9,088 bases of DNA, taken from the IMG/VR virus record IMGVR_UViG_2684622669_000014; one strand, written 5' to 3'. How positions within the stretch are numbered: position 1 is the first letter of the stretch; each line of letters opens with the position of its first letter. The translations under genes and the position numbers were made by a program. The notes beneath the pieces were generated by a model. That model was not told the DNA's origin and did no database searches. It saw only the letters and a program-made list of their open reading frames with translations. Shown here one piece after another: positions 1 through 8,286 of this stretch. The stretch is from a virus. Its lineage: Duplodnaviria > Heunggongvirae > Uroviricota > Caudoviricetes.

Positions 1-74
1 AGGCATGTGGTGAGGCGTTTCTGGCGCAGGTTCGCCTGCAGGCGGAAAAGCTGGTCAGGGAGATGGCGGCATGA
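1..74 (+). CDS. 3' end of an unidentified upstream nin-region gene (5'-truncated by the window edge)
   Basis: Frame 3 is open from the window start and ends at TGA 72-74 (C-terminus ...LQAEKLVREMAA), forming an ATGA start/stop overlap with the next gene at 71. Too short to identify; not in the ORF track because it has no start in the window. Confidence 0.4.
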   Translation, partial: ACGEAFLAQVRLQAEKLVREMAA

Positions 75-397
75 CGACGTTAACTCAATGCCAGCAGCAG
101 GTGCTGGATATGCTGATTTCTTATCAGAAAGAGCGTGGCTTCCCGCCAACCAATCAGGAGGTGGCAACCATGCTGGGATACCGTTCGGTGAATGCAGCGG
201 TGGAGCATCTTCGCGCACTGGAGAAAAAAGGCGTCATCACGATAAAGCGTGGTGTGGCCCGGGGGATCACGCTTCATACCGCGGTGAAGGACGACGACAG
301 CGAGGCGGTCGGGATTATCCGCTCACTGCTTGCCGGTGAGGAAAACGCAAGGCTGCGTGCAACTCACTGGTTACATGAGAGAGGCCTGAAAGTATGA
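71..397 (+). CDS. LexA-like winged-helix DNA-binding domain protein lacking the S24 peptidase domain (108 aa)
   Basis: ORF 71..397 with SD AGGGAG 57-62. The N-terminal ~70 aa resemble the LexA N-terminal DNA-binding domain as I recall it (LexA ...[55 protein letters not shown]... vs here LTQCQQQVLDMLISYQKERGFPPTNQEVATMLGYRSVNAAVEHLRALEKKGVITI). Stop overlaps the rusA start (ATGA). Confidence 0.75.
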   Translation: MTTLTQCQQQVLDMLISYQKERGFPPTNQEVATMLGYRSVNAAVEHLRALEKKGVITIKRGVARGITLHTAVKDDDSEAVGIIRSLLAGEENARLRATHWLHERGLKV

Positions 398-783
398 AGC
401 TGATCCTGCCTTTCCCGCCCAGCGTGAACACCTACTGGCGACACCCCAACAAAGGGGCATTTGCTGGTAAGAGCCTGATAAGCGCGGCGGGGCGAAAATT
501 TCAGAGCGCGGCGTGCGCAGCAATAGTTGAGCAGTTACGTCGTCTGCCAAAACCAACGTCGGCACCTGCTTCAGTGGAGATCGTGTTGTTTCCTCCGGAT
601 AACCGGATCCGCGATCTGGACAACTATAACAAGGCGCTGTTTGACGCCCTGACCCACGCGGGTGTGTGGGAAGACGACAGACAGGTGAAAAGAATGCTGG
701 TGGAGTGGGGACCGGTTATCCCGAAAGGGAAGGTCGAGATCACTATCAGTAAGTATGAGAAACCGGCGGGTGCAGCCGCCTGA
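394..783 (+). CDS. rusA: RusA-family Holliday junction resolvase (crossover junction endodeoxyribonuclease)
   Basis: 129-aa ORF with RusA signatures (LPFPPSVNTYWR, DLDN, FDALTHAGVWEDDRQV). Translationally coupled to the upstream gene via ATGA overlap; typical nin-region position upstream of Q. Confidence 0.9.
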   Translation: MKLILPFPPSVNTYWRHPNKGAFAGKSLISAAGRKFQSAACAAIVEQLRRLPKPTSAPASVEIVLFPPDNRIRDLDNYNKALFDALTHAGVWEDDRQVKRMLVEWGPVIPKGKVEITISKYEKPAGAAA

Positions 784-2546: not shown

Positions 2547-2924
2547 ATGCGTGATATTCAGATGGTTCTTGAGCGTTGGGGAGCGTGGGCGGCTAATAAT
2601 CATGAAGATGTGACTTGGTCGTCCATTGCCGCCGGTTTTAAGGGATTAATTCCTTCAAAAGTAAAATCTCGCCCACAATGTTGTGACGATGACGCGATGA
2701 TCATTTGCGGGTGCATGGCCCGTCTGAAAAAGAACAACAGCGATTTGCATGATTTATTGGTGGACTATTATGTCGGCGGCATGACTTTTATGGCGCTTGC
2801 ACGTAAGCATGGGCGATCTGATTGTTGGGTTGGCAGGATGCTCCAGAAAGCTGAGGGCGTAGTGGAGGGTATGCTGATGGTGTTGGATCTCCGATTGGAG
2901 ATGGATGCTGATTGTTCGAAATAA
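2547..2924 (+). CDS. Q: Late-gene antiterminator Q (phage 21/QuuD-type)
   Basis: ORF track gives 2406..2924, but the protein from the internal ATG 2547 ([34 protein letters not shown]...[16 protein letters not shown]...) matches the DLP12 QuuD-type Q antiterminator as I recall it, has an SD GGAG at 2536-2539, and avoids overlapping the upstream gene. Confidence 0.9.
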
Positions 2925-2936
2925 TTAAAGGAAAAG

Positions 2937-2965
2937 TTGCTGTCTGATTGTCATTAGTCTAACAT
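2937..2965 (+). promoter_or_regulatory. Candidate late promoter pR' (-35 TTGCTG, 17-nt spacer, -10 TAACAT); a Q-utilisation (qut) site is expected within or just downstream
   Basis: TTGCTG at 2937-2942 and TAACAT at 2960-2965, just after the Q stop. A start near 2972 with termination at tR' near 3051 would give a short ~80-nt leader as in lambdoid late operons. Hexamers are non-consensus; assignment is by position. Confidence 0.35.
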
Positions 2966-3022
2966 TTTAAATGTTGGAATCGCAACGTAGTTATTATCAT
3001 ATAACAGCTTGTTTCCTGATTT

Positions 3023-3051
3023 AGCCAGCCTCCCCAAAGGCTGGTTTTTTT
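3023..3051 (+). terminator. Rho-independent terminator, candidate tR' (target of Q antitermination)
   Basis: GC-rich hairpin CCAGCC(3025-3030)-loop TCCCCAAA-GGCTGG(3039-3044) followed by T-run 3045-3051. The minus-strand reading has no U-tail, so it is + oriented. Confidence 0.7.
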
Positions 3052-3079
3052 CTAATAAGTATTATTTCGGGTAGGGATT

Positions 3080-3604
3080 TTATTGTTTAACCCATAATAA
3101 TTCATTGACATTGAATCCCAACTTTTGAGCGGTTCGCACATAGTCTGCTTTTACTTTATCTGGAATAGTTGGGGTCCTTGCCAGAATCCATAGGTATTCT
3201 CTGTTCGGACCACTGACAAGAGCATACTTATACTCATCATCCAGTTTGATTACATTATAGCCACCATAGAAGGGGCCAAAAAACGAAACCTTCAACGCTG
3301 CAGTTTTAGTATCTCCAGTAAAGTATGCTTTACCTTCGCTCTCGCTCCATTTATTTTTCGTTGGATCGTATCCACGGTTAAGTACACGAATCCCTCCGTC
3401 GTTCCGTTTTCCATAAGTAGCGCTGACCTGTTCCAGACTACGTTCGAACCGGTTCTCGAGGCGAGCTATTTCATACCATTTTCCGAGGTAGCGGTTGGCG
3501 TCAAAATTTGTAATCGGCTGCACACCTTTAGGTGGTGTCGGGGCCTTACATGCTATAAGAGTGAAAGAGAGTGCAATGCCAGTCAACACAGGCCATAACT
3601 TCAT
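3080..3604 (-). CDS. Bacterial lipocalin (Blc-like) outer-membrane lipoprotein
   Basis: 174-aa ORF with a lipoprotein signal peptide and lipobox (LIAC) and lipocalin motifs close to E. coli Blc as I recall it (NFDANRYLGKWYEIARLENRFER, GKAYFTGDTKTAALKVSFFGPFYGGYNVI, YLWILARTP). Convergent with late transcription from pR'. Confidence 0.9.
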   Translation of the reverse strand: MKLWPVLTGIALSFTLIACKAPTPPKGVQPITNFDANRYLGKWYEIARLENRFERSLEQVSATYGKRNDGGIRVLNRGYDPTKNKWSESEGKAYFTGDTKTAALKVSFFGPFYGGYNVIKLDDEYKYALVSGPNREYLWILARTPTIPDKVKADYVRTAQKLGFNVNELLWVKQ

Positions 3605-3796
3605 AATAAATCCTGTACTTTTGATAGTTGAGAGTAAGTATGAAAGATAGATGATTACGACCGATCACTTAAAGAACTTTCATACTATATTAGGAATAGT
3701 CCATAACAGAAAAATTGTCAGTGATGACGCCAGAAAGGCAATTTATTCCGTGCACTACACAGTTTATGTGTTAATGAATTAGTCAAGGGGGAGGAT

Positions 3797-4756
3797 ATGA
3801 TAAAAAAACCTGTGATTGGAATTAGCGGTTGTTTGGCCGGTTCTGCTGTTCGTTTTGATGGTGGTCACAAAAGAGCTGACTTTTTAATGGACAAATTAGT
3901 GGAATGGGTAACATTCAGACCAGTATGTCCGGAAATGGCTATAGGGCTGCCAGTTCCGCGTCCTGCTCTACGTCTTGTGCGCTCGACGCAAGGAAATATA
4001 CGGATGTGTTTCAGCCACGACCAGAATGAGGATGTGACAGAGAGAATGACAGAGTTTAGTCGTTCTTATATGGACAAATTAAAGGATGTATCGGGGTTTG
4101 TGGTTTGTGCTAAATCTCCCAGCTGTGGCATGGAGCGCGTGCGTGTCTATGATGAAAATGGTAATCGAGGTCGTAAAGATGGAGTGGGACTATTTACGAG
4201 CACTTTGATGGAAAAGTTTTCCTGGCTACCGGTTGAAGAGGATGGGCGATTACATGATCCAGTGCTTCGTGAGAATTTTGTTGAAAGAGTTTTTGCTTTG
4301 CATGAGCTCAATCACCTTTACAAGGAGAAATTATCAAGAAGAGAGTTATTAGCTTTTCATAGTCGTTATAAGCTTCAGTTGTTGGCGCATAGTCAGGCAG
4401 GCTATAAAGATATGGGACCATTTGTGGCTGCAATACACGAGTGGGCGGACCTTGAATCATACTTTGAGGTGTATCGTGATAAGCTGATGGCGATTCTCAG
4501 AAAACCTGCATCACGTAAAAATCACACGAATGTGCTGATGCATATACAGGGGTATTTTAGTAACTACTTAAGTACACGCCAGCGTAAAGAGTTGAGCGAG
4601 GTTATACTTAACTATCGTTCTGGCACATTACCTCTTCTTGCGCCGTTGACTCTGCTGAAGCATTATCTGGGTGAGTATCCTAATGACTACTTGCTTACAC
4701 AGAATTACTTCGATCCCTATCCGGACGAACTGGCTCTAAGACTGATGGTAAATTAA
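3797..4756 (+). CDS. DUF523-DUF1722 fusion protein (TudS-like Fe-S thiouracil-desulfidase domain plus YbgA-like C-terminal domain)
   Basis: 319-aa ORF with strong SD GGGGGAGG 6 nt upstream. N-terminal domain carries the conserved cysteines expected of DUF523/TudS [4Fe-4S] proteins (GISGCLAG, PVCPE, CAKSPSCG); C-terminal half resembles DUF1722/YbgA. Mid-range GC, unlike the phage backbone. Confidence 0.85.
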   Translation: MIKKPVIGISGCLAGSAVRFDGGHKRADFLMDKLVEWVTFRPVCPEMAIGLPVPRPALRLVRSTQGNIRMCFSHDQNEDVTERMTEFSRSYMDKLKDVSGFVVCAKSPSCGMERVRVYDENGNRGRKDGVGLFTSTLMEKFSWLPVEEDGRLHDPVLRENFVERVFALHELNHLYKEKLSRRELLAFHSRYKLQLLAHSQAGYKDMGPFVAAIHEWADLESYFEVYRDKLMAILRKPASRKNHTNVLMHIQGYFSNYLSTRQRKELSEVILNYRSGTLPLLAPLTLLKHYLGEYPNDYLLTQNYFDPYPDELALRLMVN

Positions 4757-5107
4757 TTGTATGCGATATCATCCAAAAGGATGAGTTCCTGCATGCAGGA
4801 TATTTACAATCGTAAAAACTACACTATGATACCCAGAGTGTCAGTTTGTATAAAAACTCTGTTTACGCTGAAGAAACCATTGAGATGCAACTTAAAGTTG
4901 GTAAACATGCCAGTCAAAATATATAATATTATGATTCCACGCAGCTATATATAATATAACAGATTGGTTTAATAATTTGCCTTTGTGAGTTAAATACATA
5001 ATTTTATACTTGTGATGCAATGAGATTTTCCTTATTGTTGAACTGGCGAATATTGATTTTCCACCTATACTTACCTGGTGTAACCCCAATGATATCAGGT
5101 GGATAAT

Positions 5108-5839
5108 ATGCCATACATATGTTCTATCATTTTGGTGTTGAACTCGTTTGATGTCCGAATTGGTAAAGAAGATATTTTGTTTAAAAAAGGAAGTGCTGTT
5201 CTCATTGATTACAATTTAAAAGATTTTTTTTCATCAAATATAGATCATGTAATGATCGTAGATATTGAAGAGAAAACAGTTAATGATTTCTTTAAAAGCA
5301 ATACACTCTCACCTTTTTCTGTAAGAAGGTTTTATCCGGCATACTTGATGGTGGAGTGTGAAGATTTTTCATTGTTAAAGAATTTGATTGCATGCTTGAA
5401 TTGTGATGGCAGAACTGTGGATTTTGTTAGAAATCAAATATCACTTGCATGTCTTGCTATCTTATCTTCAGAGAAAATAGTGCAAAGTTTTTTATTTGGA
5501 TGTCTTAATAGTTTAGGAAGTAAAGTTAAGGCTATTATTCACACGGATATATCTGCAGCATGGAGACTTTGTGATATATCTTCAAGACTGTATTTGAGTG
5601 AAAGTCTGTTAAAAAGAAAATTAAAGCACGAAGGCTTATCATTTAGTAAGTTAATTCTTGAAGAGCGAATGGTGATGGCGGAAAGGTTATTAAGCTACAA
5701 TTTATATTCTGTTGGAAAAGTTGCTGAGATATGCGGTTATGAAAACACGTCATATTTTGTAAGTGTTTTCAGAAGATATTTTGGTGTTCCTCCCCATCAA
5801 TATTCATCAAGATTTTTTTTAGAAAAAGACATGATGTAA
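5108..5839 (+). CDS. AraC/XylS-family transcriptional regulator (Rns/GadX-like, AT-rich)
   Basis: C-terminal ~100 aa show the AraC double-HTH signature (LSFSKLILEERMVMAERLL...SVGKVAEICGYENTSYFVSVFRRYFGVPPHQY). ORF track starts at GTG 5099; I prefer ATG 5108 with SD AGGTGG at 5097-5102. Strongly AT-rich by eye, with a ~350-bp AT-rich upstream region. Confidence 0.8.
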   Translation: MPYICSIILVLNSFDVRIGKEDILFKKGSAVLIDYNLKDFFSSNIDHVMIVDIEEKTVNDFFKSNTLSPFSVRRFYPAYLMVECEDFSLLKNLIACLNCDGRTVDFVRNQISLACLAILSSEKIVQSFLFGCLNSLGSKVKAIIHTDISAAWRLCDISSRLYLSESLLKRKLKHEGLSFSKLILEERMVMAERLLSYNLYSVGKVAEICGYENTSYFVSVFRRYFGVPPHQYSSRFFLEKDMM

Positions 5840-6027
5840 CGTGATGCGTTTTAATGATTTTGTAATTTTTGTATTTGATAAATGTATGATGCTTTCAGCT
5901 ACGCCAGAATAATCGCTGGTGTTTTTCTTTTTGAATAGATGTTCAAGCCTTACGCTAATGTAACTTCTATACCTTTCCTCTTCGTTCCGAACCGTGTACA
6001 CCATCCGTTATTTGCGGAGGTGAGGCT

Positions 6028-6243
6028 ATGAAATCCATGGATAAGTTAACAACGGGCATTGCCTACGGCACCTCCGCAGGCAGTGCTGGCTACTGGTTTT
6101 TACAGCTGCTCGATAAAGTCACGCCCTCACAGTGGGCAGCAATAGGTGTGCTGGGTAGCTTGGTATTTGGCCTGCTGACGTACCTGACAAACCTTTATTT
6201 CAAGATTAAAGAAGATAAACGCAAGGCTGCGAGAGGTGAATAA
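6028..6243 (+). CDS. S: Phage-21-type pinholin (class II holin) with dual-start motif
   Basis: 71-aa ORF matching S21 pinholin as I recall it ([56 protein letters not shown]). SD GGAGG 6016-6020. Two in-frame starts (M1-K-S-M4: ATG 6028 and ATG 6037) consistent with antiholin/holin dual start. Stop overlaps the endolysin start. Confidence 0.9.
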
Positions 6244-6740
6244 TGCCTCCATCATTACGAAAAGCCGTTGCTGCTGCTATTGGTGGCGGAGCAATTGCTA
6301 TAGCATCAGTGTTAATCACTGGCTCAAGTGGTAACGATGGTCTGGAAGGTGTCAGCTACATACCATACAAAGATATTGTTGGTGTATGGACTGTATGTCA
6401 CGGGCATACAGGAAAAGACATCATGCCCGGTAAAACGTATACCAAAGCAGAATGCAAAGCACTCTTGAATAAAGACCTTGCCACTGTCGCCAGACAAATT
6501 AACCCGTACATCAAAGTCGATATACCGGAAACAACGCACGCCGCTCTTTACTCATTCGTTTACAACGTGGGTGCTGGCAATTTCAGAACATCGACGCTTC
6601 TTCGCAAAATAAACCAGGGCGATATCAAAGGCGCATGTGATCAGCTACGTCGCTGGACATATGCTGGCGGTAAGCAATGGAAAGGTCTCATGACTCGTCG
6701 TGAGATTGAGCGTGAAATCTGTTTGTGGGGTCAGCAATGA
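6243..6740 (+). CDS. R: SAR endolysin (phage-21 R-type lysozyme, T4 lysozyme-like fold)
   Basis: 165-aa ORF with a Gly/Ala-rich N-terminal signal-anchor-release segment ([20 protein letters not shown]) followed by a lysozyme domain. Start overlaps the holin stop (TAATG); stop overlaps the Rz start (ATGA). Confidence 0.9.
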
Positions 6741-7201
6741 ACAGAGTAACCGCGATTATCTCCGCTCTGGTTATCTGCATCATCGTCTGCCTGTCATGGG
6801 CTGTTAATCATTACCGTGATAACGCCATTACCTACAAAGCCCAGCGCGACAAAAATGCCAGAGAACTGAAGCTGGCGAACGCGGCAATTACTGACATGCA
6901 GATGCGTCAGCGTGATGTTGCTGCGCTCGATGCAAAATACACGAAGGAGTTAGCTGATGCGAAAGCTGAAAATGATGCTCTGCGTGATGATGTTGCCGCT
7001 GGTCGTCGTCGGTTGCACATCAAAGCAGTCTGTCAGTCAGTGCGTGAAGCCACCACCGCCTCCGGCGTGGATAATGCAGCCTCCCCCCGACTGGCAGACA
7101 CCGCTGAACGGGATTATTTCATCCTCAGAGAACGGCTGATGACAATGCAGAAGCAACTGGAAGGAGCACAGGAATATATCCGTACCCAGTGTATACCGTG
7201 A
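6737..7201 (+). CDS. Rz: Rz inner-membrane spanin (i-spanin), lambda-type
   Basis: ORF track starts at 6725, but ATG 6737 ([21 protein letters not shown]...) gives the canonical Rz N-terminal TM segment and an ATGA overlap with the endolysin stop. Coiled-coil-rich periplasmic domain; near-identical to lambda Rz as recalled. Confidence 0.88.
6957..7139 (+). CDS. Rz1: Rz1 outer-membrane lipoprotein spanin (o-spanin), embedded in the +1 frame of Rz
   Basis: 60-aa ORF wholly inside Rz, SD AAGGAG 6944-6949. Lipoprotein signal with lipobox LVVVGC and proline-rich mature part ([15 protein letters not shown]), as in lambda Rz1. Confidence 0.82.
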
Positions 7202-7666
7202 TGTTTTGTTATGAAGGTGTTACTGGTAACGTTAAGGTAATTTAACAAAAAGTCAGTTCCGGACTTTATAGTGTGCTCAGATCATGGCCAAAAACGATTT
7301 CTGTGATAAATATTTTGAATATTATTTACAGATAAATGAAGTTGTTCGCATGGATGGAAATATTACAATAGAGTATGAAGTATATGTCCGTATTGTATGG
7401 GCAGAGAAGGCAAAAACACGGTAATTCCTTGTGTTGCCATTATACCTGATTGGCAGAATAGTTGTTTGGTTTTGAGTATATAGTCAGCGTTTTTTGTTCA
7501 GTAATAGCTCTCTCAAAAAATAATAAAATAAGGTGATTATTTGGGTTTATTATTTGGTTTTTTTTGTGTGTTGTTTTGTTGTTTTTCTGTGATTTATTTT
7601 TTATTGTTATTTCATTAAAGGAAGGTAAATTCAGGATAGCAGTCTGTAGATAATCGGAGGTCACTT

Positions 7667-7981
7667 ATGCTACATGATCACCTGGCAGAATGTCTGGAGA
7701 AAAAAGGACTGTACCGGAGAGCAGCTGAACGATGGGCAAAAGTGATGGTACAGCTAAGTGATGACCAGAAAAGAAAAGTGGCGGCACAGAAACGAGCAGA
7801 GTGTTTGCGTAAGGCGCGCCGGACTCCGGTTTCACCGGTGAACCTGACAGAAATAAAACAAGCGGTCAACAGACTACATTCTGAGTTGGGAATGGGATTT
7901 GAAGAGCGGCGGGTATTCCGACGATATAAAGGGACAGGAGAACAGAATACGTCCGGAAACGCGCGGTCAAAAAAATGCTAA
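7667..7981 (+). CDS. PerC-family-like small transcriptional activator (Pch/PerC homolog candidate)
   Basis: 104-aa basic ORF with SD GGAGG 7656-7660. N-terminal LEKKGLYRRAAERWAKVM resembles the PerC/Pch signature as I remember it (..LE.KGLWRRAA..W..V). Preceded by a long AT/T-rich tract. Confidence 0.55.
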   Translation: MLHDHLAECLEKKGLYRRAAERWAKVMVQLSDDQKRKVAAQKRAECLRKARRTPVSPVNLTEIKQAVNRLHSELGMGFEERRVFRRYKGTGEQNTSGNARSKKC

Positions 7982-8017
7982 AAAATATCTGAGAGAGTTA
8001 TTGCCTGTTACCATAAT

Positions 8018-8047
8018 AAAAAGCGACTTTAGTGGTCGCTTTTGTGT
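8018..8047. terminator. Candidate bidirectional intrinsic terminator between the convergent PerC-like and YlcI-like genes
   Basis: Hairpin AAAAGCGAC (8019-8027) - loop TTTAGTG - GTCGCTTTT (8035-8043), flanked by an A-run upstream and T-rich tail downstream, so either strand reads stem plus U-tract. Confidence 0.45.
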
Positions 8048-8061
8048 CATATATAAGTTAT

Positions 8062-8286
8062 TTAAGTAAACCTGTCTGAACAGGTGCTCTGGTCGTGTTT
8101 GTCTTTGTTGGGTAAAAATTGAGAATATTTTTCATTAATTAATCTTCTTCTGCAGGCTTCAATAACCCACGCTGAAAAATTCCCTGAACCTTTCTGGTCA
8201 AGAGCAATATTAATTTGTTCAATCATCTGGTTTGGAAATCGGATGTTGCGGGTTGTTGTTCTTCGGGTTCTGTTCTTCGATGACAT
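8062..8286 (-). CDS. YlcI/DUF3950-like small prophage protein (putative ribbon-helix-helix type)
   Basis: 74-aa ORF on the minus strand; NIRFPNQMIEQINIALDQKGSGNFSAWVIEACRRRL matches what I recall of DLP12 YlcI, which also sits immediately upstream of the Nu1 homolog. Confidence 0.7.
   Translation of the reverse strand: MSSKNRTRRTTTRNIRFPNQMIEQINIALDQKGSGNFSAWVIEACRRRLINEKYSQFLPNKDKHDQSTCSDRFT

Follow-up and report, generated by a model that had tools for sequence, protein, structure and literature searches.

A prophage-borne rudS gene, predicted to encode a tRNA 4-thiouridine desulfidase, in the Q-to-holin segment of a lambdoid prophage

Jamontas et al. (Nucleic Acids Res 2024, PMC11417400) described proteins in which a TudS domain is fused to a DUF1722 domain as a family, RudS, of desulfidases that act on 4-thiouridine (s4U) in tRNA. 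When RudS_vir of phage 1H12 was overexpressed in E. coli, the level of tRNA s4U fell, and for RudS_vir and five other RudS proteins the reductions upon overexpression ranged from 4.7- to 26-fold (PMC11417400). None of the six RudS proteins assayed, RudS_vir among them, supported growth on 2-thiouracil, and in tRNA the RudS proteins acted specifically on s4U (PMC11417400). RudS_KT, the Pseudomonas putida protein PP_0741, was active on tRNA in vitro and lost activity when Cys, Glu, Ser, or Arg residues were mutated; its Y25F variant behaved like the wild type, and its presence shortened the UVA growth delay from approximately 105 to 60 min (PMC11417400). Jamontas et al. describe DUF1722 as the tRNA-binding module (PMC11417400). 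On tRNA, RudS_vir was outperformed by both RudS_KT and RudS_ST (Salmonella STM1389/ORF319) although it was well soluble, and on free 4-thiouracil it gave the shortest lag among the RudS proteins (PMC11417400). Given this combination, the substrate preference of the phage enzyme in vivo could be skewed.

Two described proteins each resemble one half of RudS. TudS (PDB 6Z92, 6Z93, 6Z96, and 6ZW9) is a single-domain protein of approximately 150 amino acids without DUF1722, and it prefers 4-thio-UMP (PMC10611767). Unlike RudS, TudS caused no drop in tRNA s4U in vivo, and it supported growth on 2- and 4-thiouracil (PMC11417400). E. coli YbgA (b0707), encoded 5' of the photolyase gene phr, is a stand-alone DUF1722 protein akin to the C-terminal half of RudS; it has no catalytic domain and does not affect s4U (PMC11417400).

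We analyzed a 9,088-nt stretch of viral DNA (IMG/VR record IMGVR_UViG_2684622669_000014), referred to here as the window. It is 99.0 to 99.4% identical to lambdoid prophages and phages. The features that we discuss are as follows, in order of position.

2547 to 2924, plus strand: antiterminator Q, QuuD/phage-82 type (PF06530, E = 6e-51; a 378-nt CDS in RefSeq, "antiterminator Q family protein")
2896 to 2925, plus strand: candidate late promoter pR', a weak consensus match (TGGAGA-18-AATAAT, 9/12)
3023 to 3053, plus strand: tR'-like intrinsic terminator from the terminator scan, a 9-bp GC-rich hairpin followed by seven U
3080 to 3604, minus strand: blc, lipocalin Blc-like outer-membrane lipoprotein, antisense to the late transcript (PF08212, E = 1.6e-43)
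3605 to 3796, no strand: divergent blc-rudS spacer, containing the Shine-Dalgarno sequence AAGGGGGAGG at 3785 to 3794
3797 to 4756, plus strand: rudS, predicted 319-amino-acid TudS-DUF1722 tRNA 4-thiouridine desulfidase (Pfam, homology, conservation, AlphaFold)
3815 to 4243, plus strand: TudS/DUF523 catalytic domain of RudS, residues 7 to 149 (PF04463)
3830 to 3832, 3926 to 3928, 3932 to 3934, and 4124 to 4126, plus strand: codons for Cys12, Cys44, Glu46, and Cys110 of RudS
4370 to 4723, plus strand: DUF1722 domain of RudS, residues 192 to 309 (PF08349)
4803 to 4830, plus strand: predicted sigma-70 promoter of the AraC-like gene (TTTACA-16-TATGAT, 10/12)
5099 to 5839, plus strand: AraC-family (YdeO/GadX-like) regulator, the last cargo gene (PF12833, E = 1.1e-14; PF00165, E = 2.1e-11)
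5901 to 5930, plus strand: second terminator-like hairpin from the terminator scan, at the boundary of cargo and lysis genes, with the hairpin at 5901 to 5922
6028 to 7201, plus strand: lysis cassette (Pfam), with holin at 6028 to 6243, endolysin at 6243 to 6740, Rz at 6725 to 7201, and embedded Rz1 at 6957 to 7139

The sequence and its translation indicate that the open reading frame at 3797 to 4756 is a real gene. It starts with ATG, and the GGAGG core of its purine-rich Shine-Dalgarno run ends just 2 nt 5' of the start codon. The product combines two domains in one polypeptide, each matched over its full profile and well over the curated Pfam cut-off: PF04463, named "2-thiouracil desulfurase" (DUF523), at profile positions 1 to 141 of 141 (E = 3.1e-40), and PF08349 (DUF1722) at positions 1 to 117 of 117 (E = 1.9e-40). 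This is the architecture of the RudS family, and the HMM search upheld the domain assignment made in the original prediction. Models for the stand-alone relatives fit less well. At 319 amino acids with a fused DUF1722 domain, the protein is not a stand-alone TudS, and its score of 18 bits (E = 0.0014) with the NCBIfam TudS-related model is far short of the cut-off of 130. Residues 160 to 315 match the NCBIfam YbgA model PRK10167 (E = 1.4e-56), but the score of 190.8 bits is below the equivalog cut-off of 237. Because of this C-terminal match, PGAP calls the whole protein "YbgA family protein", a name that describes the C-terminal domain only. In PHROGs, the protein falls in phrog_3275, "unknown function".

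The residues needed for catalysis are all present. The motifs GISGCLAG (residues 8 to 15), PVCPE (42 to 46), and CAKSPSCG (104 to 111) contain Cys12, Cys44, and Cys110, the ligand positions given for both RudS_vir and RudS_ST, and the proposed three-cysteine Fe-S pattern held up on alignment: among 69 diverse homologues, Cys12 and Cys44 are each conserved in 68 and Cys110 in 67. Glu46 (69 of 69), Arg55 (69), Ser107 (68), and Ser109 (65) correspond to E51, R60, S111, and S113 of RudS_KT, with residue numbers mapped by offset from the Cys ligands. The same mapping places RudS_KT R24, Y25, and N26 at Arg19 (68 of 69), Phe20 (Phe in 35, Tyr in 29), and Asp21 (Asp in 52, Asn in 17), so that the phage protein differs from RudS_KT at positions 20 and 21; the counterparts of S243 and R244, Ser239 and Arg240, are present at positions that vary across the family. 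RudS_KT and RudS_ST share with the window protein both the TudS-DUF1722 fusion and the Cys/Glu/Ser/Arg set.

The predicted structure agrees with this assignment. The AlphaFold model has a pLDDT of 95.3 and a pTM of 0.92, and the only significant Foldseek matches in the PDB are TudS structures 6z92, 6z93, 6z96, and 6zw9 (E of approximately 1e-6, probability 1.00, target TM-score 0.71 to 0.74), as anticipated for a catalytic domain with the TudS fold. The cysteines C10, C43, and C104 and residues E45, S101, and S103 of TudS correspond to C12, C44, C110, E46, S107, and S109 here, whereas overall identity to TudS is just 26 to 27%. The DUF1722 domain is all-helical in the model, and Foldseek found no solved structural relative of it in the PDB.

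The closest characterized relative is RudS_vir itself (Escherichia phage 1H12 gp66, H3V29_gp66), likewise 319 amino acids long, with the same three cysteines and 298 of 319 residues identical (93%) in a gapless alignment. None of the 21 differences falls at a catalytic or mapped tRNA-binding residue. On this evidence from sequence, the product is RudS, a predicted tRNA s4U desulfidase, and the enzyme is already known. The original prediction presented the gene as an uncharacterized candidate, a description overtaken by the published assays of RudS_vir (PMC11417400). Its broad idea of an enzyme acting on a thiolated nucleobase in RNA was right, in that the 93%-identical protein acts on s4U in tRNA (PMC11417400). 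The narrower proposal of 2-thiouracil-type substrates or tRNA s2U, acted on by a TudS-type desulfidase, has in its favor the Pfam name and the ability of stand-alone TudS to desulfurize 2- and 4-thiouracil (PMC10611767); given that no RudS allowed growth on 2-thiouracil and that activity in tRNA is confined to s4U (PMC11417400), we regard this proposal as scarcely credible. At the nucleotide level, the window gene and the 1H12 gene are 92% identical with a dS of approximately 0.30, and we therefore treat them as distinct allele classes. Sorted by best match to the window gene, 595 E. coli genomes carry a copy at least 99% identical, and 110 fall in the 90 to 95% band that includes the 1H12 allele.

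By homology, the catalytic cycle would proceed as follows. Cys12, Cys44, and Cys110 would ligate the [4Fe-4S] cluster of a monomeric enzyme, leaving a free fourth iron that would bind the thiocarbonyl sulfur of s4U, while Glu46, Ser107, and Ser109 would aid the hydrolytic replacement of sulfur by oxygen. The C-terminal DUF1722 domain would dock the anticodon arm of the tRNA, and the position erased would be s4U8.

Together with blc and the AraC-like regulator gene, rudS makes up a 3.1-kb cargo segment, with Q and its tR'-like terminator on one side and the holin gene on the other. In lambdoid phages, late control is exerted at pR' and then tR', which follow Q. The hairpin at 3023 to 3053 has a predicted folding energy of -14.9 kcal/mol (z = -3.49 vs shuffles), and we regard the site at 2896 to 2925 as a pR' candidate because it is directly 3' of Q and approximately 100 nt 5' of the terminator, matching this layout. 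The lysis genes downstream are well supported (P21-type holin, E = 2.2e-35; lysozyme, 3.4e-46; Rz, 1.2e-53; Rz1, 3.8e-20), and Pfam also identifies RusA, KilA-N, and DUF968/HNH proteins among the neighbors; together these genes confirm the late-region placement originally proposed. We detected no Rfam families or tRNA genes within the window. Among the other cargo products, Blc reaches 314.5 bits with the NCBIfam Blc subfamily model, above its cut-off of 267, and the AraC-like protein matches NCBIfam YdeO (E = 6.6e-37) well under the cut-off of that model; the 732-nt CDS in RefSeq implies an AraC-like start at ATG 5108.

Comparison with DLP12 in BL21(DE3) delimits the cargo. Homology ends at 2906 and restarts at 6017, which sets the right end and gives a cargo of 2907 to 6016. 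DLP12 carries nmpC in the same Q-to-holin slot, so the window has a tRNA-modification eraser, a lipocalin, and a regulator in place of a porin. In Stx phages, the Q-to-S slot is occupied by stx, a toxin gene; the cargo of the window is not a toxin. GC content also sets the cargo apart, at 43% for rudS, 44% for blc, and 31% for the AraC-like gene, compared to 47 to 53% for core genes. Position in the slot, distinct GC content, and exchangeability between homologous phages mark these as Q-to-S cargo genes, or morons. Phage 1H12 has the identical gene order of Q, blc (opposite strand), rudS, AraC-like gene, holin, and endolysin. The possibility that the assay host BL21(DE3) has a native rudS in DLP12 was also considered and rejected: its quuD-essD slot holds an IS1-disrupted nmpC, and no rudS occurs in the 40 kb examined.

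The rudS gene was found in 1,136 of 5,426 complete E. coli genomes (21%), with nearly all copies chromosomal, and in 126 IMG/VR contigs, where copies retain the Q-blc-rudS-holin arrangement. A tblastn search of 50,697 phage records returned full-length RudS in only 12 phages, all of them E. coli lambdoid phages. The ten remaining matches are partial, all in unannotated and mostly short records: nine comprise the TudS domain only (12 to 48% of the query, approximately 30% identity), and one, 68% identical over residues 1 to 195, comes from a 1.6-kb Salmonella record. The open reading frame is intact in all 83 copies compared, and its dN/dS of 0.09 to 0.15 indicates purifying selection, which spans the whole gene, including the DUF1722 region. 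The survey of prophage neighbors suggested at the outset revealed a stable cassette: across 80 rudS-bearing viral loci, blc is present in every one and the AraC-like gene in 71, and the order Q-blc-rudS is kept in 79 within mosaic flanks. Because Q is retained beside rudS (97 to 100% identical in 78 of these loci and 77% in one more), it can be said to travel together with the cargo segment. The cassette also persists in a defective prophage at the DLP12 site of strain MRSN346647, in which the portal gene is frameshifted and the capsid gene broken.

In E. coli, then, rudS is typically prophage-borne. The expectation that such genes are normally chromosomal fits other Enterobacterales but fails for E. 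coli. According to reviews of tRNA modification, one of them from July 2026, RudS is absent from E. coli, and this absence has been invoked to account for differences between the UVA responses of E. coli and Enterobacter (July 2026 review). Contrary to these reviews, 21% of complete E. coli genomes have an intact, selectively maintained rudS in a lambdoid prophage; therefore, the choice of strain could confound s4U and UVA experiments.

Several observations bear on when the gene is expressed. It is co-oriented with the late operon, no plus-strand terminator is predicted between 3046 and 5901, and the promoter scan found no strong sigma-70 promoter 5' of rudS, detecting in the blc-rudS spacer a single weak promoter-like site at 3628 to 3655. 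Relative to phage 1H12, the spacer is approximately 96% identical from 3600 to 3730 but only approximately 80% identical in the rudS-proximal part from 3730 to 3796, no better than the 83% at third codon positions of rudS. Given its orientation and the lack of a convincing promoter of its own, the bulk of rudS mRNA most likely stems from late transcripts antiterminated by Q once the prophage is induced, and expression in the lysogen would be low at most. The conserved blc-proximal spacer may nonetheless hold a regulated promoter. No LexA-box-like site that would suggest SOS control occurs within 2900 to 6100. Between rudS and the AraC-like gene, the spacer is just 58% identical to phage 1H12 except at the predicted promoter at 4803 to 4830, which stands out as a conserved island.

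The phage enzyme needs no new explanation, as a near-identical allele has been assayed; why a temperate phage retains a tRNA-modification eraser in a late-operon slot is a question that nobody has raised. Taken as a whole, we consider it very probable that the gene encodes a RudS s4U eraser carried as Q-to-S cargo. It is probably expressed late, and we propose a role of the following kind. Less s4U in host tRNA would mean less UVA-driven s4U8-C13 crosslinking and hence less translation arrest and a weaker stringent response in sunlight, a benefit that would be timed to prophage induction by UV damage, when late proteins are needed. Solar UV would cause DNA damage, SOS, and induction and, at the same time, s4U8-C13 crosslinks that stall translation and raise ppGpp; an eraser already present in the lysogen, or produced soon after the late program begins, would let translation continue and increase phage yield. 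The specific claim that RudS is carried to uncouple prophage induction from the sunlight alarm of the host is one that we judge unlikely. If it is true, approximately one in five E. coli strains would differ in tRNA s4U and UVA response purely through prophage content. RudS acts on s4U that is not yet crosslinked and is not known to repair crosslinks once they have formed; expressed late, it may therefore arrive too late after a pulse of UV, and the mostly dark gut habitat of E. coli phages also counts against a role in sunlight. The same enzyme might instead act at another time and for another beneficiary, as in lysogenic conversion: rudS would be expressed from its own promoter in the uninduced lysogen, possibly activated by the AraC-like protein, and low s4U would shorten the UVA growth delay of the host outside the gut. 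Biochemically, it is more sensible to remove s4U before irradiation than afterward, the cargo has the hallmarks of acquired genes (lower GC and an exchangeable slot), the cassette survives in defective prophages such as that of MRSN346647, and a conserved predicted promoter precedes the neighboring AraC-like gene. We hold lysogenic conversion to be possible, if doubtful, given that no strong sigma-70 promoter precedes rudS, that the proximal 66 nt evolve at about the synonymous rate, and that there is no MerR/LitR light-sensing regulator. The genes for RudS_KT and RudS_ST, by comparison, are chromosomal and accompanied by MerR/LitR regulators and photolyase, whereas the window gene is phage cargo beside an AraC-like gene.

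Two further explanations move the target away from sunlight. The short lag of RudS_vir on 4-thiouracil, its desulfidation of tRNA below the expectation from protein level (PMC11417400), and a fully conserved active site shared with TudS, which prefers 4-thio-UMP (PMC10611767), would fit an enzyme that acts mainly on free products of tRNA degradation (4-thiouracil, 4-thio-UMP, or 4-thio-UTP), either detoxifying them or returning them to the pool of uracil nucleotides while the phage replicates. Such salvage is quite improbable in our estimation: no RudS rescued a uracil auxotroph to the extent seen with TudS, and the authors do not regard thiouracils as primary substrates (PMC11417400); in addition, the tRNA-binding DUF1722 domain is retained under purifying selection, and the flux of s4U would be tiny relative to phage nucleotide demand. 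A gene in the late operon whose product acts on the tRNA of the host could also serve counter-defense, as the original prediction had suggested, or tRNA reprogramming, with loss of s4U8 blinding a tRNA-targeting defense or with degradosome-mediated decay of hypomodified tRNA-Tyr and tRNA-Ser favoring phage translation. In E. coli, overexpression of RudS_KT cut the levels of two tRNA species by half (PMC11417400), and loss of s4U leads to degradosome-mediated tRNA decay in Vibrio cholerae. However, none of the cargo products (RudS, Blc, and the AraC-like protein) has a match in PADLOC, and our literature search found no tie of s4U, ThiI, or RudS to phage defense. We know of no defense system that reads s4U8. 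Moreover, full-length phage RudS occurs only in a single group of lambdoid phages of E. coli, whereas anti-defense genes are broadly distributed, and we consider this explanation very improbable.

With the family described, the PGAP name "YbgA family protein" and the PHROGs entry "unknown function" could both become RudS. The donor of the phage gene was sought in species-representative genomes, in which, contaminant-like MAG scraps aside, no allele exceeded 77% identity. Chromosomal rudS orthologues of Citrobacter and Klebsiella lie in a different, long operon, so their native regulation is not transferable to the phage copy. That operon includes an unannotated gene for a 175-amino-acid protein, which we considered as a sign that the association of Blc with RudS predates capture by phages; we rejected this idea because the protein is unrelated to Blc (BLASTP E = 4.5). 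The 175-amino-acid protein is weakly chalcone-isomerase-like.

The ORF at 3797-4756 (+ strand) of the window, rudS, is real and encodes a protein of 319 amino acids; a purine-rich ribosome-binding run, AAGGGGGAGG, lies upstream at 3785-3794. The original prediction assigned the N-terminal domain to DUF523 from three cysteine motifs, all of which are there (GISGCLAG, residues 8-15; PVCPE, residues 42-46; CAKSPSCG, residues 104-111), and the C-terminal half to DUF1722. A Pfam search confirmed both assignments, covering the full profiles of both PF04463 (DUF523, currently named "2-thiouracil desulfurase"; residues 7-149, E 3.1e-40) and PF08349 (DUF1722; residues 192-309, E 1.9e-40). Bacterial tRNA 4-thiouridine (s4U) desulfidases of the RudS family (Jamontas et al., Nucleic Acids Res 2024, PMC11417400) are defined by a fusion of TudS to DUF1722. 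The window protein is not a stand-alone TudS, nor, at 190.8 bits (cutoff 237), is it an equivalog of E. coli YbgA. Database names are less specific: PGAP calls it "YbgA family protein," and PHROGs places it in phrog_3275, "unknown function." Escherichia phage 1H12 (NC_049947) was recovered among the matches to the window DNA, and its gp66 is identical to the window protein at 298 of 319 residues (93%) with zero gaps, while the copy in phage IdasGreatGrand is identical at 318 of 319.

The product of that 1H12 gene, RudS_vir, is the one viral RudS tested by Jamontas et al., and its cluster ligands are Cys12, Cys44, and Cys110. Overexpression in E. coli of each of six RudS proteins, including RudS_vir, reduced tRNA s4U by 4.7- to 26-fold, the tRNA activity of RudS_vir being somewhat weaker than its protein level predicts. 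In vitro tRNA desulfidation, tRNA binding, and a shortened UVA growth delay (from approximately 105 to 60 min) were reported only for RudS_KT, which is PP_0741 of Pseudomonas putida (PMC11417400).

We examined residue conservation by aligning the window protein with 68 homologues (n = 69), most of them 35 to 56% identical to it. Glu46 and Arg55 are kept in all 69 sequences, Cys12, Cys44, Ser107, and Arg19 in 68, Cys110 in 67, and Ser109 in 65; the remaining two cysteines, Cys71 and Cys104, show no conservation in this alignment. None of the 21 differences between the window protein and RudS_vir falls at any of the eight conserved positions, and the positions found essential by mutagenesis of RudS_KT are conserved in the alignment and all present in the window protein. 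C10/C43/C104, E45, S101, and S103 of TudS (PMC10611767) correspond to C12/C44/C110, E46, S107, and S109 here. An AlphaFold2 model built from a 73-sequence alignment was very confident (mean pLDDT 95.3, pTM 0.92). When it was compared to the PDB with Foldseek, the only significant matches were five chains of TudS crystal structures (E of about 1e-6, probability 1.00, target TM-score 0.71 to 0.74, 26 to 27% identity), and the predicted catalytic half matches the TudS fold; the helical DUF1722 half had no match in the PDB. A PDB sequence search with the window protein also found TudS alone. In its domains, catalytic residues, and predicted fold, the window protein is a RudS; counterparts of the RudS_KT tRNA-binding residues could be placed only tentatively, and the biochemical features of the family are demonstrated on the 93%-identical allele, not on the window allele. 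The enzyme is of an already known kind, and finding it is not in itself a discovery.

The surroundings of rudS are those of a lambdoid prophage, with these features.

Features flanking rudS in the window
394-783, RusA
803-1612, KilA-N
1969-2529, DUF968/HNH
2547-2924, antiterminator Q
3023-3046, intrinsic terminator followed by seven U (-14.9 kcal/mol, z -3.5)
3080-3604, - strand, Blc-type lipocalin gene (NCBIfam 314.5 bits, cutoff 267)
5099-5839, + strand, AraC-family gene of the YdeO/GadX type (likely start ATG 5108)
5901-5922, second terminator-like hairpin
6028-6243, P21-type holin
6243-6740, endolysin
6725-7201, Rz with embedded Rz1

With Q before it and holin, endolysin, and Rz after it, rudS does lie in a phage late region, as had been proposed. 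A mechanical ORF call that begins Q at GTG 2406 makes it overlap the DUF968 gene, but RefSeq and the Pfam hit, to residues 48-165 of this longer ORF, point to ATG 2547 as the true start. The terminator at 3023-3046 is canonical, approximately 100 nt past the Q stop codon, which is the expected place of a lambdoid tR'. Because no + strand terminator was predicted between 3046 and 5901, Q-modified late transcription should read through rudS. The Blc lipocalin gene is antisense to this presumed transcript. We found no convincing rudS promoter; the 192-nt spacer has one weak sigma-70-like site, and the 66 nt closest to rudS are approximately 80% identical to the 1H12 allele, no better than third codon positions of rudS (83%). 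Upstream of the AraC-like gene, a good predicted sigma-70 promoter (4803-4830, TTTACA-16-TATGAT) stands out as conserved within a spacer whose remaining sequence shows 58% identity to that of 1H12. Overall, rudS would be made mainly from the late transcript after induction; that it is instead made in the lysogen seems to us possible, but rather unlikely.

Homology to DLP12 of BL21(DE3) stops at 2906, within the 3' end of Q, and resumes at 6017, leaving 11 nt to the start codon of the holin gene. In DLP12 (L156 7911-10562), this quuD-essD slot is occupied by a porin gene, nmpC, disrupted by IS1, whereas in the window it carries blc-rudS-araC; therefore, we regard this 3.1-kb segment (2907-6016) as cargo that can be exchanged. 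In this segment, GC is 44% in blc, 43% in rudS, and 31% in the AraC-like gene, compared to 47 to 53% in adjacent phage genes. Among 80 loci fetched from IMG/VR, blc and rudS were present in all 80, Q in 79 (97 to 100% identical in 78, 77% in one), holin in 76, and the AraC-like gene in 71, while the nin-region and lysis modules differ (RusA 39% or 98% identical, endolysin 35% or 95%). This constancy of blc, rudS, and Q within varying modules indicates that the cargo travels with Q through mosaic lambdoid phages.

We detected rudS in 1,136 of 5,426 complete E. coli genomes (21%), 1,064 of them with at least 80% of the gene covered, at identities of at least 99% (595 genomes), 95 to 99% (431), or 90 to 95% (110). 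Nearly all placements in these genomes were chromosomal (1,188 of 1,190), and a wider 3.2-kb query, from the end of Q to the start of holin, reached a coverage of at least 80% in 990 of the genomes. In IMG/VR, 126 contigs carry rudS. The 319-codon ORF is intact in all 83 copies compared (IMG/VR viral contigs, two sequenced phages, and the window), which comprise 43 nucleotide alleles, and pairwise dN/dS of 0.09 to 0.15 indicates purifying selection. A search of 50,697 GenBank phage records recovered full-length RudS from just 12 phages, all of them lambdoid phages of E. coli.

No allele of >77% identity was found in a representative genome of another species, except on two contaminant-like contigs (L144 and L149; 3.2 and 2.1 kb) of a MAG named "Candidatus Nanosynbacter sp." Their fragments, 94 to 100% identical to E. 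coli prophage rudS, almost certainly represent binning contamination rather than a Patescibacteria gene. The nearest chromosomal orthologues, in Citrobacter and Klebsiella, are 74 to 77% identical. Those of Citrobacter braakii and Klebsiella grimontii (L003-L005, L009-L010), at 74 to 76% identity, each close a conserved operon of nine genes (SnoaL, SDR, amine oxidase, DUF1365, CFA-synthase-like, DUF2878, a 175-aa gene, DUF3833, RudS); Blc is unrelated to the 175-aa gene. C. braakii ATCC 51113 has two RudS copies (L092, L093). In Salmonella enterica serovar Derby and metagenomes (L006-L008), a RudS with 74% identity is flanked by a PF01171 ATP_bind_3 gene, presumably ttcA, and by a DUF1367 gene. 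The Derby copy adjoins a phage integrase fragment, suggesting that rudS became associated with a prophage remnant a second time, independently. Two single-member clusters in which RudS seems fused to another domain (P0002, 403 aa, PF00990 GGDEF; P0006, 500 aa, DUF3833) are probably gene-calling or assembly artifacts, reading through from the adjacent gene.

By homology, the three cysteines would hold a [4Fe-4S] cluster whose free iron takes the s4U8 sulfur, Glu46 and two serines would aid hydrolysis, and DUF1722 would place the tRNA. With s4U lowered, UVA-induced s4U8-C13 crosslinking would stall translation less, whether RudS is made late or in the lysogen. What makes such UVA protection appealing is that lambdoid prophages are classically induced by UV. 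The s4U-dependent growth delay is also reportedly related to SOS expression, although we do not rely on this. Counting against it, coliphages live mostly in the dark, and RudS is not known to repair tRNA once it is crosslinked.

TudS-like nucleotide salvage would fit the growth on 4-thiouracil, where RudS_vir gave the shortest lag; however, the protein retains its tRNA-binding domain and the authors conclude that thiouracils are not primary substrates (PMC11417400), and we disfavor this explanation. The 2-thiouracil or s2U substrate of the original prediction is contradicted by the same study, in which no RudS supported growth on 2-thiouracil. For its other suggestion, counter-defense, there was no PADLOC match and our literature search found no link. 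That search also found no discussion of RudS in a prophage context. That E. coli has no RudS is stated both by Jamontas et al. (PMC11417400) and in an MMBR review of July 2026; the prophage copies, present in one of every five complete genomes of this species, seem to have escaped notice. Depending on the prophages they carry, natural isolates may vary in s4U content and in their response to UVA, which bears on strain choice for s4U and UVA work and poses a testable question: why does a temperate phage keep an eraser of tRNA modification?

The 9-kb window carries two cargo regulators. The AraC-like regulator belongs to phrog_1450 (NCBIfam YdeO E 6.6e-37, far under the cutoff) and may be one of the AppY/PatE/Psr-type regulators, carried by prophages, that control acid resistance and virulence. 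The other, a PerC-family transcriptional activator (7667-7981, + strand; PF06069, E 5.4e-44) just past the lysis genes, lies in a second variable segment (7180-8138) with no homology to BL21 DLP12, which has iss/bor there instead. In addition, an ORF at 71-397 (+ strand, 108 aa) has only the LexA DNA-binding domain (PF01726, E 2.9e-19), without the peptidase domain, and could encode a noncleavable LexA-like repressor or a LexA-box competitor.
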